Shown here piece after piece: positions 3,049-20,113 of a DNA stretch of 32,000 nt. Within the stretch, counting starts at the first letter, position 1; each line of letters starts with the position of its first letter. A model generated the notes under the pieces. It was not told the DNA's origin. It saw only the letters and a program-made list of their open reading frames with translations, and ran no database searches. The DNA is taken from positions 930,001 to 962,000 of the forward strand of contig NZ_CP007754.1 in NCBI RefSeq assembly GCF_000757865.1, written 5' to 3'. The position numbers were made by a program, and so were the translations under genes. Source of the stretch: Prochlorococcus sp. MIT 0801 (GTDB lineage Bacteria; Cyanobacteriota; Cyanobacteriia; PCC-6307; Cyanobiaceae).

Positions 3049-3055
3049 AAAGTCA

Positions 3056-3241
3056 TTATCCAAGATAATTACAATATAAAACGCCATCATTTATTACATT
3101 ATCATCATCAACCTCTAACCATTCTTTGTATTCATCATACAGAGCTTCCCTGTTTTCACCATTCAAATTATTCAGTCGTTTAAGTGATGCGTTTAGCATT
3201 ACTTCTACTGCGTTTAAAGCTCCAGATTGCCTAGCAGACAT
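3056..3241 (-). CDS. Small hypothetical protein (61 aa), paralogue of 3487..3666
   Basis: ORF-track entry. It shares a conserved core with the divergently encoded 59-aa ORF (NASLKRLNNLNGENREALYDEYKEWL vs NSALKRISKLEGKDKKALESEFKEWI) and a C-terminal VLY motif. Confidence 0.6.
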   Translation of the reverse strand: MSARQSGALNAVEVMLNASLKRLNNLNGENREALYDEYKEWLEVDDDNVINDGVLYCNYLG

Positions 3242-3486
3242 AGAATAAATGAAGATTTATATAAAAACTTAGATCATGTAATACTATTTTTCAGTTTCAT
3301 TTATTACAGAATTCAGAATTTGACTAGTTTACGTAAAAAAAATTCAAAATAATTGAATAAATTTTGATTAATGTATGTGTATACATATAATGAGATTGAT
3401 TTCATAGTTGTTTTTAACTTATACGGGATTTACTAATTAACAGATGATAGTAGAGATAATAAGATAAAAATAACTGATTAGTTCAG

Positions 3487-3666
3487 ATGTCAAACACAAA
3501 CATTCTAGGAAGTTGTGAAGTCACAATTAACTCTGCACTTAAGAGAATTTCTAAACTAGAAGGCAAAGACAAAAAAGCTCTAGAAAGTGAGTTTAAAGAA
3601 TGGATAAATGCAATTGAAAGTATTGAAAAGAACTATGATGTTCTTTATATAAATAAGATCATTTGA
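3487..3666 (+). CDS. Small hypothetical protein (59 aa), paralogue of 3056..3241; below the ORF-track cutoff
   Basis: Hand translation gives ATG 3487 to TGA 3664-3666 = MSNTNILGSCEVTINSALKRISKLEGKDKKALESEFKEWINAIESIEKNYDVLYINKII. About half the residues across the 32-aa core are identical to the 61-aa neighbour. Confidence 0.6.
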   Translation: MSNTNILGSCEVTINSALKRISKLEGKDKKALESEFKEWINAIESIEKNYDVLYINKII

Positions 3667-3670
3667 TCAT

Positions 3671-3877
3671 TTATGCGCGAGGATGTAAATCTGGATATCT
3701 ACTACTTTCATCTTTTATTCTATTTGGATTTTCACGGTCTGAACTTCTGGCAGCATTGAAAATAACTAAAAAAGGTATGAATATTGCGAAGAAATAAAAA
3801 TGCAAGAGGACTAAATCCCATGGAACTCCTGAACTTCCATAATCTGGAAAAAACAAAGCGGTAGCTAAAGGGAGCAT
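3671..3877 (-). CDS. Small hypothetical membrane protein (68 aa)
   Basis: ORF-track entry with a hydrophobic segment (LVLLHFYFFAIFIPFLVIF) followed by a charged tail. No recognisable family. Confidence 0.4.
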   Translation of the reverse strand: MLPLATALFFPDYGSSGVPWDLVLLHFYFFAIFIPFLVIFNAARSSDRENPNRIKDESSRYPDLHPRA

Positions 3878-4206
3878 TTTAATCCAATTACTAATATTAA
3901 CTTAGCTAGAACCACTCTCAAGCGTGAGTTACTTTTTAGACCAAGATTTAATTAAAAGCTGCAACTCTCTTATACGCTTCTCTGCTGCTTCAATCTTTTC
4001 TGACTTCATTTTCAACTCTCAAGAAAGTTAAATCATATCAAAATGAATAGTATTTCGCGGTGTTAGTAACCGTAAGAGAGTGATTCAATCCTTATAGTTA
4101 AAGTAAATATTTGCTGTATGTAATAAGCTCAAACAAAATACTAAAGCTTTGCATAAAAACAATTAACGAACTATATTAACATCGTAAATATTTAATTCGT
4201 TAAAGG

Positions 4207-4422
4207 ATGAAGTACATAACAGAGAGCATAAAGAATATAAAAAATCTTTTACCCTATTTACTGTTAATAGCTATATATTTCTTTTTTGTTAATCTTGAGG
4301 CAGGGAGGGATAAAGAAACTAACAGAACAAACGAGAATGAATCTTTGTTGATAGAAGAAAAATCAACCGAACAAAATAAACAACAAAGAATAAAAATCCC
4401 AGTAATTCCATACAAACAATAA
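4207..4422 (+). CDS. Small hypothetical membrane-anchored protein (71 aa)
   Basis: ORF-track entry. AAAGG lies directly upstream of the ATG. The N-terminal hydrophobic helix LLPYLLLIAIYFFFV is followed by a hydrophilic tail. Confidence 0.45.
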   Translation: MKYITESIKNIKNLLPYLLLIAIYFFFVNLEAGRDKETNRTNENESLLIEEKSTEQNKQQRIKIPVIPYKQ

Positions 4423-5081
4423 ATTAATACCTAATATTTAATTTTGAAGTCCTAGCATTAAATAAATTGGCTTGTCTTTGCGAAGCCCTATCAAGCTGTT
4501 TTTTAATTTCTAAGCAGTGCTCGCAGTTGCATGTCATTTTAGAAAATAAATAAAGAAGGTTTTAAGTGAGAGGGTAAATCAAATGATGAGCGAGAATGAT
4601 TTAGAAGTTAAAAACTAACTAATTTTATGATTAATTTAACAACAAATCAGAAAATTTCAAGATGATTTTTTTAATAAAAGTAATCTCTGATATTAGCTTT
4701 GTATATGATTTAGTTGAATCTAATCCTTAGAGAATGATTTAGTGATCATTGGAAACACGTTCGGCATCAATTGACTTCTCATAATAAAGGTCGAGAGTTG
4801 AGTCTAGTTCAGCTAATAAATATGTTATGCGTTCATCCTTTTGATTTAAATCTTCTTGATTGATTAGGTTCATATTTATATGAGTAAGTAAGGTACTCAG
4901 GAATGATTGGAATTAATTTGAAGTACATGTTTAGATAAAGCTTCAGATATAATCTGACTTTAAATAACCATTGATTTCGAATAGTTAGTTAATTATTGGG
5001 GATTGAGAACTGAAGTGTGTATAAAGCTTGTTCGGTTTACAACCATTCGGATTATTCAGTATTACCAAATTTTAATAATGA

Positions 5082-5345
5082 ATGTTTATATTTTTAAAAA
5101 CTCCATTACCAATATTTAAAAGTGATCTAAAATTAAAAATCTATCAGATGTCAATGAAAAGAAAATTATTTAACATCGATAAAAAACCTCCATATTCACT
5201 TATAGGTTTGGAAAAAAGAGCTGCACTTGCTATTCAGAACCATTTTCGATTGAGCAATTATCAAATGCTAGTACTAAGTTGGATTAAGGGTCTCTGGACA
5301 GGTATTTTGCTTTCTCTAGTGGCCCATTATTTTATAAGTCATTAA
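5082..5345 (+). CDS. Small hypothetical protein (up to 87 aa; the true start may be the internal MSMKRK..)
   Basis: ORF-track entry with a C-terminal hydrophobic helix (LVLSWIKGLWTGILLSLVAHYFI). No family recognised. Confidence 0.4.
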   Translation: MFIFLKTPLPIFKSDLKLKIYQMSMKRKLFNIDKKPPYSLIGLEKRAALAIQNHFRLSNYQMLVLSWIKGLWTGILLSLVAHYFISH

Positions 5346-5488
5346 ACTCATGGATTCTTGCCCTTTAATTAAAAAAATTAATATATTTGCTTATAAAAAG
5401 CTCAACATCTTGGCAGGTTATGAAGTGGATTTTCTAAAGGAATTAATTTGATGTCCTATTTTTAAAAAGAAGTTTATAAATCTAACTA

Positions 5489-5743
5489 TTATTCAGATGT
5501 TAACTGAACTTCCTTTACCAAAATATTATCGTCTGTATTATCTAAATCATGAATATCAAAATCATCTGTTGAAATTGTTTTAATTGATTCAGCTGATTGG
5601 ATTTCTAAAGTTGTAGGATATCTTTTACCTATTTTACTTTTGTTTGTATAAAACATACCTTGAATATAATCTTTATTTTCGGTAAATCTTATCAAAAATA
5701 ATTTAAAATTTGAATTAATGAACTTTATAAAATTCTTAAACAT
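5489..5743 (-). CDS. Small hypothetical protein (84 aa)
   Basis: ORF-track entry. The composition is protein-like with an acidic C-terminal half. No family recognised. Confidence 0.4.
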   Translation of the reverse strand: MFKNFIKFINSNFKLFLIRFTENKDYIQGMFYTNKSKIGKRYPTTLEIQSAESIKTISTDDFDIHDLDNTDDNILVKEVQLTSE

Positions 5744-6161
5744 AATAAAAACTAATGTGAACTTATTATGGCTAAGCTAATTATTTAAACTGAATGAAAT
5801 TAGTAGTGCATTCCGAACTTCTATGTCTTTTTATACTGTATTTATAAACTACGATAGAATTAAATAAGCTACAAATCGGTAAATGTTCACGCATATTACC
5901 GATCATTTTTAAATTAACATACTACTTTTATTTGATAGGTAGCAAAAAATACAAATGACTTTATAATAAATTAATTTTAACTTCTTATGGTTTGTAAAGA
6001 CATTAATCAAATATTAATATCCTAAAGTATCGCTTGATAATTGGTGTGGTATGAGTCATGAGCAATTTAAAAAACAACAAGTAAAATGATTTATAACTCA
6101 CGCTACTAGTCAATAATAGAGAGTAGATAATACCGAACAGAGAAAACACGCATTTATATGT

Positions 6162-6350
6162 ATGTGTTCTTATAGTTGTAAGAAAATGATAGAGACAGTT
6201 TTTAAAAATCAGGTCTTAATAACTTTTGTAATTGCAAGTATTTGGATAATCCCAGGTATACTTTTCACATTTGCAACGAATCGCAAATACAAAAATCGCC
6301 AAATTGAAAGGCAGATTAAAAAGGTGGCTAGATTATATCCTCAGCAATGA
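6162..6350 (+). CDS. Small hypothetical membrane protein (62 aa or shorter)
   Basis: ORF-track entry with one hydrophobic helix (VLITFVIASIWIIPGILFTFA) and a basic tail. An alternative start exists at MIETVF. Confidence 0.4.
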   Translation: MCSYSCKKMIETVFKNQVLITFVIASIWIIPGILFTFATNRKYKNRQIERQIKKVARLYPQQ

Positions 6351-6394
6351 TATGAATGTATCGTAATCCAGCAAATTCTTAATTACTTTATAAT

Positions 6395-6451
6395 TTATTT
6401 TTTATTTTTTTCGTTATTATTTACTGGACGAACAGGCTTAGGTAGAAGCAT
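6395..6451 (-). CDS. Micro-ORF B1 (18 aa): MLLPKPVRPVNNNEKIKK
   Basis: Hand translation on the minus strand gives ATG (plus-strand CAT at 6449-6451) to TAA (plus-strand TTA at 6395-6397). The first 10 residues are identical to micro-ORF B2 (7028..7087), while 7 of the 9 codons after the ATG differ, all synonymously (including CGT vs AGA for Arg). It lies 74 nt downstream of gene A1. Confidence 0.55.
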   Translation of the reverse strand: MLLPKPVRPVNNNEKNKK

Positions 6452-6525
6452 AATAGAATAAGAGCTAATCTTTTTTAACCATGATCGATATAGGAATCTG
6501 CATTTAATGATACGATTTTCTATTT

Positions 6526-6681
6526 TTAGCTTTTATTTGTCTTTTCTATAACTTTTTGGAGTTCAGCTCTTGAAAGAGTAGCTTCAATTTGAGCCAAAAC
6601 TTGCTGTAGTTCGGCAGTTTTATTCAATGACGTCTCAGCCATAGATCTAAGCTTTTGAAGTTCTTTAGAGGCAGTTTTCAT
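6526..6681 (-). CDS. Small helical protein A1 (51 aa): MKTASKELQKLRSMAETSLNKTAELQQVLAQIEATLSRAELQKVIEKTNKS
   Basis: Translated base by base on the minus strand. It is a paralogue of 7176..7334 (NKTAELQQVLAQIEATLSRAELQKV vs DKTPQMQQALARLEATLSRRETQKV), with synonymous differences inside the conserved EATLSR block. Confidence 0.55.
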   Translation of the reverse strand: MKTASKELQKLRSMAETSLNKTAELQQVLAQIEATLSRAELQKVIEKTNKS

Positions 6682-6928
6682 AGATAAAATGAAAAAATTG
6701 ATTTTTTCCTAGAGAAATTACAGATAATTAGCGAAAAAATTAATAGTGACAACACACGAACAAATTTGCCCTAGATTTTCATGATGTCAATAGTTATGAT
6801 TGTGATACATAAATAAATGAATGGTTTTATTAATTCTTTTGTTGATTTTTATTACTTATATTTCTATTAACTAGTTATCAAAATATAAGCAAGATAAAGC
6901 TTAAGACTTATGTTGATTTATAAGATAT

Positions 6929-6964
6929 AAAAAAAAAACAAAGGTATATTTTAATACCTTTGTT
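6929..6964 (-). terminator. Rho-independent terminator for the minus-strand A2-B2 cassette (weaker on the plus strand)
   Basis: A perfect 11-bp stem pairs AACAAAGGTAT (6937-6947) with ATACCTTTGTT (6954-6964), with the 6-nt loop ATTTTA between them. On the minus strand the stem is followed by the complement of the A10 run at 6929-6938, which gives a U-tract. The hairpin sits about 65 nt downstream of the B2 stop. Confidence 0.6.
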
Positions 6965-7027
6965 CTTTTAATAACAAAAAGAGGAAATTAATAAAGATAA
7001 TAATTAATTAAATTGACATCCTTAAAA

Positions 7028-7087
7028 CTAACTGTCTTTTCCTTTCTTTTCAGAATCAACAGGTCTAACTGGCTTTGGCAATAGCAT
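7028..7087 (-). CDS. Micro-ORF B2 (19 aa): MLLPKPVRPVDSEKKGKDS
   Basis: Translated base by base on the minus strand, ATG (CAT 7085-7087) to TAG (CTA 7028-7030). It has the same N-terminal decapeptide as B1 with only synonymous differences, and lies 88 nt downstream of A2. Confidence 0.55.
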   Translation of the reverse strand: MLLPKPVRPVDSEKKGKDS

Positions 7088-7175
7088 GATAAAAATCCAA
7101 TCTCTATATATATTTATAGATGGTTTTCAAGATACGTAAATAAGAATTTAAAGTTTGAAACTTCTTGACACAAGC

Positions 7176-7334
7176 CTATCGCCTTTTAAGAGACTTCTCC
7201 GTCACCTTTTGTGTCTCCCTTCTTGAAAGGGTTGCCTCAAGTCTTGCTAACGCTTGTTGCATTTGCGGAGTCTTATCCATTGATCTCTATGTTTTGGCGA
7301 AAAGTAGCTGAATTTCTCCTGAAGAATTGTTCAT
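7176..7334 (-). pseudogene. A2, a paralogue of A1 interrupted by an in-frame TAG at codon 16 (alternatively a truncated 34-aa product from the internal ATG at 7278-7280)
   Basis: The minus-strand translation is MNNSSGEIQLLFAKT*RSMDKTPQMQQALARLEATLSRRETQKVTEKSLKRR. The TAG (plus-strand CTA 7287-7289) aligns with GAG (Glu16) of A1, which is a single G-to-T change. Confidence 0.55.
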
Positions 7335-7455
7335 TTCATATGGAAAATAGCATTTGAGTCAGCATGTTTGATTTAAATATAGAAATCAAGACAGTCATTC
7401 GCTAAGGAAAAGCTAGGATTTGAATGTTCAGTAAATATTCCATTAATGATCATTA

Positions 7456-7677
7456 ATGGAGATAATATCTATGACAGAAGATTGGAAGCCAGTAGATTCT
7501 CAAGTCCTAGTAGACGCATGGGATGAAATTAAAGATTGTGCTGAAGGTATACAAAAAGATCTAGCTTGCCCAGATGAGACTATTTCAAAAATGCTGAGGT
7601 CAGTCGCTGAAACATTTGATAATACTGTCGAAGATCTTCTTGATAAGGCTGAAGAGGATTGGGAAGAAGAAAAATAG
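7456..7677 (+). CDS. Small acidic hypothetical protein (73 aa; possibly starting at MTEDWKP)
   Basis: ORF-track entry. It is highly acidic (..DKAEEDWEEEK) and richer in G+C than the surrounding spacers. Confidence 0.45.
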   Translation: MEIISMTEDWKPVDSQVLVDAWDEIKDCAEGIQKDLACPDETISKMLRSVAETFDNTVEDLLDKAEEDWEEEK

Positions 7678-7692
7678 ATGTATTATTGACAT

Positions 7693-7836
7693 ATGATTCC
7701 AGATTTCTTTCAATCCCCTGAACACCTAACTCATATGGATCTATGGAAAACGATAATTGGCTTGTTCATAGTTTTATTTGCAACTTTTGTAGGCGTCGAA
7801 ATTAGAATTGGTAATGAAGACGAAGAGACAAAATAA
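7693..7836 (+). CDS. Small hypothetical single-pass membrane protein (47 aa); below the ORF-track cutoff
   Basis: Hand translation: MIPDFFQSPEHLTHMDLWKTIIGLFIVLFATFVGVEIRIGNEDEETK, ATG 7693 to TAA 7834-7836. It lies 15 nt after the preceding ORF on the same strand and has one clear hydrophobic helix. Confidence 0.35.
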   Translation: MIPDFFQSPEHLTHMDLWKTIIGLFIVLFATFVGVEIRIGNEDEETK

Positions 7837-8438
7837 TAGTTAATTTCCTAGTAAATCATTTTTCCTTGGCAATTTATTTAATTCTTAAATCTAAATTTGA
7901 ATAATAATGTAGAAAAATATTTGCTTTTTTCAAAATGTAAATGTCAATTAAGGTTTAGCGTAACTTAAAGATTTGCATCAGATAAAAAAGAACTTCTATG
8001 TTGGCAAAAACTAAGTGAACAATATAGATCAATGTGGAGTTGGACAGTTCCAGGAGATTATTTTGTTTTTAACCAAATAAAGGATTTTTCTGTCATATCA
8101 AATAAAGAGTTATCAAACAAATTTGCTGTATTAAAGATTGACATAACTCAAGTTGATCAATTATTTCTTCATAAACTATTGATATAAGTAGAAGATGGCT
8201 ACTTGCAAAAGAATGGAAAGAGGAGCGGATAAACCCTTAAATAATTTAGGATGATAAAACTTACTGTTGGAAAAGATTCATTATATTCCTATCAGCCTAA
8301 GGATTTTGATAGCAATTTATGTAACTAAAGCTAAGTGAATTGATTAATCATAATTCAACAGAGAAATAGAAAAGGAGATTAATGAAAAAACTAAAATTAA
8401 GTTATTTCAATGGTTGATAAATGCAATCACGTTTTTGA

Positions 8439-8603
8439 TTATTCCCCCCCTCCCCAGGCTTTGTGCTTTCTATCTAGGTCAGATATTGAATTACACTGAG
8501 CCTTTAATTTTAAAAGATAGGAAACTTTCGAAATCTTAGTATATGAAATCTTAATGGGGTCTTCCACCATAGACTGGTATGCGTTTAAGTAATCACTACT
8601 CAT
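8439..8603 (-). CDS. Small hypothetical protein (54 aa) ending ..HKAWGGGE, with a homopolymer tract in its last codons
   Basis: Hand translation on the minus strand: MSSDYLNAYQSMVEDPIKISYTKISKVSYLLKLKAQCNSISDLDRKHKAWGGGE. There is no paralogue or recognisable family, so support is the ORF alone. Confidence 0.3.
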   Translation of the reverse strand: MSSDYLNAYQSMVEDPIKISYTKISKVSYLLKLKAQCNSISDLDRKHKAWGGGE

Positions 8604-9060
8604 TAAGTTCAGAAGTGCTATATTTTTTATATTTACTACAGCAGTAAATCAAATTAATTTTTTTTAATTATCTCTTTGTCTTTGCTTAACAAGGTTAAGC
8701 AGCATTATAAGTTTTTCTACTTAATTTAATTTCTAAAACCTACCCGACTCTAAACTACATTCATAAATTGAAGTTGCTTTAGCTACGACTTTTGAAAATT
8801 TTAATCAATGGAATCAAGTCTCTTTAGCTACTAGTTTAGGAGAGTGGCATTCATTTTTTATAGTTAAGCAGTTTAGTCGCTAGTAAGCTTTATTCAATGA
8901 CCTCAAATAAATATAGATCTCAAGATTTCTTCCGAAGAAGACCATCCTCAATTATCATGCTTACATACATACCTTTTTCATTTCAGTTATGATTGATCTT
9001 ATTCAAGGATAGTATCTTGAATAATTATCTGTTACTCTGTTAATTTTTAGGTATCTGTTT

Positions 9061-9134
9061 GTCAGTGTAGCTCAGCCGGTTAGAGCACAGCATTCATAAC
9101 GCTGAGGTCGAGAGTTCAAGTCTCTCCACTGACA
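9061..9134 (+). tRNA. tRNA with anticodon CAU (elongator tRNA-Met type; tRNA-Ile2/lysidine cannot be excluded)
   Basis: Cloverleaf folded by hand. The acceptor stem pairs GTCAGTG with CACTGAC. The D arm is TAGCTCAGCCGGTTAGAGCA. The anticodon stem is CAGCA/CGCTG around the loop TTCATAA. The T arm is GAGAG-TTCAAGT-CTCTC and the discriminator is A. No CCA is encoded. It lacks the initiator signatures (a 1:72 mismatch and three G-C pairs in the anticodon stem). Confidence 0.9.
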
Positions 9135-19562: not shown

Positions 19563-20113
19563 AGTTTAGTAATTTAATTAAAGCTACTCCATTCTTATCT
19601 ACATTATTATTAATAATCTTTCTCTGTGTAAGTAATCAAAAGGAATACACAAAAATAAGAATATTAATTTGGAACACACCATCTTTAACTTTAGGAAATT
19701 ATCTTGCAATATCAACAGGAACTGGTTTTATTCTCTCTTATTTTATAACAACAAGACTTGGAAAGGCAATTCAAATAACACAAAAACCAACTCTAGGATA
19801 TAAAGAAGAAGATAAGTATGAAGAGGTTAGTGAAGACGAGGAGACTGTATTTAATAAAGATCAACCATATAATAATGCTCTAATAGAGCGAGACATTAAA
19901 GATCCATCACCAACAATAAATGCAAGCTTTAGGGTAATAGGAAGGAAAGAAAGAAGAAGTTTCAATCACGAAAAATCTAATATTGATGATTCTCAATATG
20001 AAGGCTCTTTAGAATATGAGGATTTTGATGATCAATCTGTCAAAAATAAAAGTATCAATCAACCTAACTCAATAGTAGGTGACTGGGATGATGAAAATTA
20101 TTCAGCATGGTAA
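19559..20113 (+). CDS. Hypothetical membrane protein (two N-terminal helices, possibly LapA/DUF1049-like, with an acidic C-terminal tail)
   Basis: ORF-track entry. The start overlaps the ubiX stop (ATGA). Hydrophobic helices are at the N-terminus and the remainder is Asp/Glu-rich. Confidence 0.6.
   Translation: MKFSNLIKATPFLSTLLLIIFLCVSNQKEYTKIRILIWNTPSLTLGNYLAISTGTGFILSYFITTRLGKAIQITQKPTLGYKEEDKYEEVSEDEETVFNKDQPYNNALIERDIKDPSPTINASFRVIGRKERRSFNHEKSNIDDSQYEGSLEYEDFDDQSVKNKSINQPNSIVGDWDDENYSAW

Follow-up and report, generated by a model that had tools for sequence, protein, structure and literature searches.

Bacteria encode small proteins of roughly 15-50 aa in short open reading frames (sORFs). 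In E. coli there are SpfP (15 aa), SgrT (43 aa) and MntS (42 aa), and PatS of Anabaena is a gene for a peptide of 13-17 aa whose RGSGR motif binds HetR. The small cyanobacterial regulators AtpTheta, PirA, NblD and AcnSP have been reviewed, and no conserved cyanobacterial protein is shorter than PetN, at 29 aa, according to the same review (PMC11848123). The micro-ORF considered here, B2, resembles this class of proteins. It is a very short ORF with a putative promoter and terminator of its own, and its product would be soluble, charged and conserved at the peptide level. It differs in being seen in one Prochlorococcus lineage only. It has no sequence relationship to SpfP, SgrT, MntS, AtpTheta, PirA, NblD or AcnSP, and its 19 aa make it shorter than PetN. 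The likeness to PatS is an analogy only: both are cyanobacterial genes of fewer than 20 codons with a short invariant peptide motif, but B2 has no RGSGR, its conserved motif is N-terminal and its host is unicellular. To our knowledge, Prochlorococcus has no HetR. Judged by its sequence, B2 is a new family within the sORF-encoded small proteins.

Short units of two other kinds are also worth comparing. The Yfr RNAs of Prochlorococcus, including Yfr106-108 of the LL clade (PMC7368042), are like B2 in being short, clade-specific intergenic units with a promoter and a terminator hairpin. They differ in that the conservation of B2 follows codon logic and not RNA structure. The leader peptides of attenuation systems (trpL, hisL, pheL, TnaC, SpeFL and MgtL) share with B2 the size of the ORF (14-34 codons), an intrinsic terminator after it and a same-strand gene further 3'. 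Where B2 departs from them is taken up below with the other rival explanations.

B2 lies on a segment of a low-light Prochlorococcus chromosome of about 30% GC; the window referred to here is the whole stretch of 32,000 nucleotides that was analysed. On one flank of the locus are the C-terminus of a methionyl-tRNA ligase, an LptC-like gene, CCB2/CCB4, CobU and a SpoU methylase. On the other are tRNA-Met, an AhpC-type peroxiredoxin, FtsH and RecJ. Between SpoU (end 3048) and tRNA-Met (9060) there are small ORFs only, none of which has a significant family match. At 7456-7677 an acidic protein of 73 aa is encoded divergently. The features of this region are listed in Table 1. In every locus this region keeps its syntenic position, with the SpoU methylase gene on one side and tRNA-Met/AhpC on the other. 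A hypervariable genomic island was rejected because this synteny extends over the whole stretch from 3 to 9 kb of the window. B2 was found in Prochlorococcus only, and the carriers of known clade all belong to LLI. The named isolates carrying it are MIT0916 and MIT1012 only, both of which are of clade LLI (PMC12675747). Viral contigs gave no match to the peptide pattern or the promoter pattern, and phage genomes gave no tblastn match for A1 or B.

Table 1. Features of the A-B locus, in window coordinates
Feature	Position	Strand	Description	Sequence
Micro-ORF B2	7028..7087	minus	ATG 7087-7085, 19 codons, stop 7030-7028	MLLPKPVRPVDSEKKGKDS
Micro-ORF B1	6395..6451	minus	ATG 6451-6449, 18 codons, stop 6397-6395	MLLPKPVRPVNNNEKNKK
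Putative B2 promoter block	7112..7166	minus	Sequence consensus; exact pattern match at 7161-7114	
Upstream element	7166-7153	minus	Conserved part of the B2 promoter block	AAGAAGTTTCAAAC
-35-like element	7140-7135	minus	B2 promoter; 16-nt spacer to the -10	TTTACG
-10-like element	7118-7112	minus	B2 promoter	TATAAAT
B2 intrinsic terminator	6925..6969	minus	16-bp hairpin (6969-6932) and T-tract; terminator scan	
Gene A1	6526..6681	minus	51 aa; conserved copy of A; ORF list	MKTASKELQKLRSMAETSLNKTAELQQVLAQIEATLSRAELQKVIEKTNKS
A1 promoter	6762..6790	minus	TTGACA (6790-6785), 17 nt, AAATTT (6767-6762)	
Gene A2	7176..7334	minus	A1 paralogue directly upstream of the B2 promoter; tblastn match 7334..7185	

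Two micro-ORFs in the window, B1 and B2, encode peptides with the same start, MLLPKPVRPV. The earlier note had taken this pair as direct evidence of translation, and the codon strings it gave match the window sequence exactly. After the ATG 9 of 27 bases differ and 7 of the 9 codons are affected, yet no amino acid is changed. The synonymous differences include a Leu codon (CTA/TTG) and an Arg codon (CGT/AGA). Two results exclude chance as the origin of the match. A degenerate back-translation of the decapeptide, searched across the whole window with up to 3 mismatches, finds the B1 and B2 sites only, where shuffles lead one to expect 0.00. When 9 random substitutions are placed in codons 2-10, the peptide is retained in 0 of 300,000 trials. 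As an argument for translation, the comparison of the two copies pointed in the right direction, but it is the weakest form of that argument since B1 is a less constrained and often decayed paralogue. We argue that the decisive signal of selection is that of the B2 orthologues of other genomes, not the B1/B2 pair.

The back-translated decapeptide was scanned against one genome per bacterial species. This gave 25 loci, every one of them in Prochlorococcus, and a B2-type ORF is present in 25 of 25. Codons 11-19 (DSEKKGKD[DNS]) lie outside the search pattern, and in these genome loci they are conserved with synonymous variation. Residues 1-10 are fixed by construction in a peptide search, so metagenomes were searched with the non-coding block alone. 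The pattern used, GTTTCAAA-N13-TTTACG-N15-CTATAA, covers the promoter block and has no overlap with the ORF. It matches exactly in 101 metagenome stretches. Among all the loci collected the block matches at 126 places. A complete B ORF follows 23-29 nt downstream at 122 of these, and 3 are cut by the end of the contig. The match on a 3.3-kb contig (L105) has no downstream B ORF and is probably a chance match. All 122 complete B2 orthologues collected via the promoter block are intact, and this must be taken as an upper bound since loci in which the promoter and the ORF have both decayed are invisible to these searches. One single-cell genome outside the 25 (L138) was reached via A1 only, and it has the promoter and an intact B2.

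The B2 orthologues are 17-22 codons long, mostly 19, and their consensus peptide is MLLPKP[V/I]RPVD[S/A]EKKGK[D/E]x. In the 113 unique 51-nt cores the residue counts run M L L P K P [V106/I7] R P V D [S91/A19/T2/P1] E K K G K. The conserved residues are all of 1-11 and 13-17; the constraint is absolute at residues 1-6 and 8-11, and the charged tail is less constrained. Variation in the 113 unique sequences falls almost wholly on third codon positions, with an entropy by codon position 1/2/3 of 2.8/0.5/15.3 bits, a pS of 0.57 and a pN of 0.026. The earlier note had proposed collecting homologues from genomes and metagenomes and computing dN/dS. Doing so gives purifying selection, with a dN/dS of about 0.025 for B2, the tightest constraint in its neighbourhood. 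The earlier note's view of a peptide that stays conserved under drifting nucleotides is borne out across the orthologues by the intact ORFs, the third-position variation and this dN/dS. The note had also named frameshifts and non-synonymous scatter as evidence that would count against it: there is none for B2, and there is scatter and frequent loss for B1. B2 is very likely a genuine micro-gene that codes for a peptide, and B1 its decaying paralogue. It would be translated into a 19-aa cytoplasmic peptide.

This peptide does not belong to any described family that we could find. Profiles from Pfam, NCBIfam and the PDB do not match it. When 5.8 billion proteins were queried with the concatenated peptide, 15 matched, and all of these are artefactual extensions of the B2 ORF, either upstream or through a mutated stop, and no longer protein with the decapeptide was found among these 5.8 billion. 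The exact decapeptide string has no match in the papers searched. Nor did we find a description of the B2 locus in those on small proteins, sRNAs or ribosome profiling in Prochlorococcus.

The signals around B2 fit a short transcription unit. The conserved block upstream reads as a sigma-70-type promoter, and in 116 unique sequences conservation reaches 90% or more even at those of its positions that the search pattern does not cover. In an alignment of the flanks (27 sequences) this nucleotide-conserved block is followed by an AU-rich leader, and the ORF by an unalignable 3' UTR and then a hairpin with a T-tract. Transcription would start near 7105. The promoter would drive a transcript predicted at about 175-180 nt, made up of a leader of about 18 nt, the 19-codon ORF, a variable 3' UTR of ~56 nt and the hairpin terminator. 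The terminator hairpin has an energy of -9 kcal/mol or below (mean -14.6) in 94 unique orthologues, and in these its stem begins a median of 56 nt past the B2 stop. Compensatory double changes are seen at 12 of 12 predicted terminator pairs in 42 orthologues. There is no Shine-Dalgarno sequence at B2, and a missing Shine-Dalgarno is common in Prochlorococcus. The element AAGAAGTTTCAAAC contains the palindrome GTTTCAAAC, and a TTCTT, a few bases downstream after a 7-nt spacer, matches the element. Having such a conserved element upstream of the -35 suggests that B2 expression may be regulated.

B2 is one half of a cassette that occurs twice. Each B is preceded on its strand by an ORF of ~51 codons, A, and the two A-B cassettes align over their full length with 73% identity, which argues for an old tandem duplication. 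Every sufficiently long locus has the same order: A2, promoter, B2, terminator, promoter, A1, then B1 when present. The four genes have fared differently. Where the locus extends far enough to tell, an intact A1 nearly always follows B2, and the dN/dS of A1 is about 0.09. Of 111 loci, 67 (60%) have an intact A2 and about 40% a broken one; the intact copies have a dN/dS of about 0.19. In the window A2 is broken by an in-frame TAG that leaves a 34-aa ORF at 7280..7176. B1 is intact in 19 of 71 loci (27%), broken in 3 and unrecognisable in 49, with a dN/dS of about 0.15. Its peptides run MLLPKP[V/I]RP[L/V/S]-N-x-N-[D/E]-K-N-K-K, and one has a TTG start. It sits 74 nt downstream of A1 without a B2-type promoter or terminator. 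The B1 in the window is a comparatively well kept example of the decaying copy. By the retention and dN/dS of the four genes, A and B are each maintained as a single good copy, A1 and B2, and these sit on different cassettes. The scatter in B1 and its frequent loss make it a decaying duplicate and not an equal partner of B2. A2 and B1 have quite likely both been decaying since the duplication.

Several other explanations for the conservation of B2 must be considered. The conserved object could be a non-coding RNA or a DNA motif with an incidental ORF, or an antisense ORF that shares the wobble positions. The B2 transcript would indeed have the size and signals of an sRNA, and in 110 of 110 sequences the antisense frame that shares its third positions stays open. 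However, neither an RNA nor a DNA motif accounts for third-position variation that keeps the amino acids, including the two-step Leu and Arg changes. Compensatory RNA pairs, which the earlier note had said would speak for a structured RNA, were looked for in the ORF and are absent. RNAalifold gives no consensus structure for the leader plus ORF (0 pairs in 118 unique sequences), and single sequences fold more weakly than their shuffles (mean MFE z-score +0.7). Only the terminator covaries. A structured RNA was rejected on the empty consensus and on folding no better than that of shuffles. An Rfam scan of the window found the tRNA at 9061-9134 alone and nothing at the B2 region. An antisense ORF was rejected as well, because there is no start codon over the overlap and its pN/pS is higher, 0.17 against 0.047 in the sense frame. 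The sole start (ATG, GTG or TTG) in the open stretch in the window is the ATG at 7086, which is at the edge of the overlap, and the B2 promoter and terminator face the sense direction. We consider this whole group of explanations extremely improbable. One can also imagine a dual transcript that encodes the peptide and acts as a base-pairing regulatory RNA, like SgrS/SgrT or Spot 42/SpfP. Trans-acting sRNAs are likewise short transcripts that have a promoter of their own and end in a strong terminator hairpin, and Prochlorococcus leans on sRNAs: PMC2518516 describes few protein regulators and a heavy reliance on sRNAs. This scenario is still quite unlikely, since pairs of leaders differ at 37% of positions, the 3' UTR is unalignable and no conserved seed or non-coding segment was seen, while the conservation of the ORF follows codon logic. 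Yfr106-108 of NATL2A were rejected as the identity of the transcript because their published probe and primer sequences do not match the B2 locus; key B2 locus sequences are also absent from the supplements of PMC7368042. We argue that the selected product of B2 is, with good probability, the peptide and not the RNA.

A conserved peptide could still act in cis. In such a scenario B2 would be a leader peptide that steers hairpin termination and read-through into A1, by attenuation or by nascent-peptide arrest. The order of promoter, short ORF, intrinsic terminator and same-strand gene is the right one for this. Conservation at the peptide level would fit sequence-specific arrest too; the arrest peptides TnaC and SpeFL are conserved in this way. 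However, A1 has a strongly conserved promoter of its own 3' of the B2 terminator; a gene under attenuation is transcribed only by read-through from the promoter of its leader. The consensus of the A1 promoter is CTATTGACAT...TGGCAaaTTt, with conservation of 90% or more across 80 unique upstream regions, and it sits about 100 nt upstream of the A1 ATG. A1 is therefore independent of read-through from B2. The terminator stem of B2 also begins too far from the stop, at the median of 56 nt, for a terminating ribosome to reach it, and the spacer between them is not conserved in sequence. No antiterminator was found: pairing of the upstream transcript with the 5' arm of the terminator equals that of shuffles (mean z -0.06). 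B1 is downstream of A1 and has no same-strand gene after it. Finally, B2 has no tandem codon runs, and unlike attenuation leaders it is conserved along the whole peptide and not at regulatory codons alone. On the promoter of A1, the distance of the terminator and the lack of antiterminator pairing, the attenuator reading was rejected, and we judge a cis-acting B2 very unlikely. If the peptide acts in trans it might instead be a proline-rich effector of the ribosomal exit tunnel or of DnaK, like the proline-rich antimicrobial peptides. The earlier note had offered an idea of this kind as speculation, and LLPKPVRPV does have 3 prolines spaced by two or three residues along with basic residues. 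Proline-rich antimicrobial peptides of the oncocin/Bac7/apidaecin type have a very high Pro/Arg content with repeated PRP or PP motifs, and those we know of are all animal-derived. Of the 19 residues of B2 three are Pro and one is Arg, and neither PRP nor PP repeats occur. It has no signal peptide, there are no export or immunity genes nearby, and the profile searches of PDB, Pfam and NCBIfam gave no match, so an effector of this type is very doubtful. Two other classes of peptide were considered and rejected. A type I toxin (Ibs, Ldr or TisB type) does not fit a peptide that is hydrophilic and charged after residue 10 with 3 prolines in residues 4-9. A RiPP precursor of the prochlorosin kind does not fit one with no Cys, one variable Ser/Ala position and no modifying enzyme nearby.

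This returns us to B2 as a peptide gene whose product would act in trans as a very small protein. It is too small for an enzyme, which means it probably works by binding a partner. The absolute constraint at the N-terminus together with the looser tail suggests that a linear motif at the N-terminus does the binding. The invariant decapeptide is partly hydrophobic and contains prolines, and it may bind its protein partner in an extended form, while the charged tail might need only to stay hydrophilic. That the B peptide acts in trans by binding a partner is possible, at something short of an even chance. Protein A is the first candidate for the partner since the duplication took in A and B together. 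The AlphaFold2 model of A1 is a single helix over residues 2-50 (pLDDT 93), and a helical A would be the most obvious candidate. A1 matches 479 protein clusters, none of which has a Pfam domain or a name. Its family has 134 representatives at 50% identity, all short, and A has no significant match in Pfam, NCBIfam, PADLOC or PDB. A 48-aa subfamily of A is found downstream of pstC-pstA-pstB in another Prochlorococcus lineage. No B-like ORF was found near these pstCAB-associated genes, which means A can exist without B. A fuller scenario would make B2 a regulatory peptide and the smallest conserved functional protein in Prochlorococcus, specific to LLI, docking on a cellular target through its decapeptide, forming a new two-component module with A, the module being under dedicated transcriptional control through AAGAAGTTTCAAAC. 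As a whole we offer this scenario as tentative and rather unlikely to hold in full.

Standard gene callers miss genes of fewer than 30 codons, and in the protein databases B2 occurs only as part of ORFs with artefactual extensions. Here single-cell genomes and metagenomes supplied more than 100 distinct alleles, and such diversity in natural populations can by itself, with no experiment, establish a 19-codon ORF as coding. The A-B cassette is also a clear example of complementary decay after the duplication of two genes. If our reading of B2 is true, its protein is shorter than PetN. B2 has cultured hosts in MIT0916 and MIT1012, so the hypothesis is open to direct test. Prochlorococcus has a streamlined genome with very few regulators. 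The strict retention of B2 in one ecotype of such a genome implies that it likely does something specific to that ecotype.

The 6 kb from the SpoU methylase gene to tRNA-Met (window 3050-9060), in which the two A-B cassettes lie, contain only small ORFs, and none of these has a family match. It is worth considering whether this is a hypervariable island. The stretch is syntenic at 65-80% identity in all related genomes, therefore we rule out such an island.

Features of the cassette region and of a related locus
Feature	Position	Strand	Remark
Membrane-like ORF, 62 aa	window 6162-6350		no family match
A1	window 6526-6681	-	gene family A
A1 promoter (predicted)	window 6762-6790	-	high conservation; perfect TTGACA -35 box
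Stop-free frame	window 7032-7139	+	shares B2 wobble positions
Conserved element AAGAAGTTTCAAAC...TTCTT	window 7141-7166	-	just upstream of B2 -35 box
A2	window 7176-7334	-	gene family A
Conserved block ACTGTCTTG(G/A)TTTCTTCATTTA	window 7365-7400	-	upstream of A2
Acidic protein, 73 aa	window 7456-7677		no family match
Membrane-like ORF, 47 aa	window 7693-7836		no family match
A-like subfamily, 48 aa, MDKTKEQLEKLREVAEASLTKTDELQKVLAQIEALMSRKESQTLSKKK	L127 3836-4147; also L128-L131

The element before B2, the 19-codon micro-ORF, is strongly conserved and contains the palindrome GTTTCAAAC. A regulator may bind to this element, and to our knowledge it matches none of the NtcA, LexA, Fur, PhoB or RpaB motifs. 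There is a near-copy with 1 mismatch at 19954-19967 (+), a number within chance expectation. The -35 box of the A1 promoter is unusual for Prochlorococcus in being perfect. The 5' UTR downstream of this promoter is about 75 nt long, and a CCTAG...CTAGG inverted repeat within it is conserved in part. The block upstream of A2 is preceded by a TTAGCT...AGCTAA inverted repeat and lies within the divergent intergenic region that A2 shares with the 73-aa ORF. This block may serve as a promoter or an operator.

The plus-strand frame opposite B2 has no stop codons in 110 of the 110 orthologues examined. No start codon is found in this frame over the B2 overlap. The open frame is probably a side effect of B2 codon composition.

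Some copies of B2 are unusual. There are natural alleles without a stop codon (P0365-P0367, P0369, P0370 and P0375), in which 40-75 extra residues are read from the 3' UTR. These extensions look non-functional on sequence grounds because they are unrelated to each other. A 1-kb metagenome scaffold (L133, 1-1027) has an intact B2 directly 3' of a 226-aa Amidase_2, endolysin-like ORF, and at the junction GC falls from 41-50% to 27-31%. Either B2 was acquired by a phage or mobile element, or the assembly is chimeric. On a low-coverage contig (L134, 1-605; protein P0364) there is a tandem pair of promoter-plus-B2 units, and at their joint the AG-rich B2 3' end meets the similar A2 3' end. This suggests recombination between the purine-rich 3' stretches of B2 and A2, or an assembly artefact.

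In a different Prochlorococcus lineage, the 48-aa A-like subfamily is found 3' of pstC-pstA-pstB. An ORF of 51 aa lies 10 nt upstream of the A-like gene, and there is no B-like ORF at this locus (L127-L131). The product of family A itself is 51 aa long and is predicted to form one long helix. It has hundreds of relatives in marine metagenomes, and no family name was found among them. Decay of the A and B paralogues is complementary: A1 and B2 are retained, and A2 and B1 are often lost.
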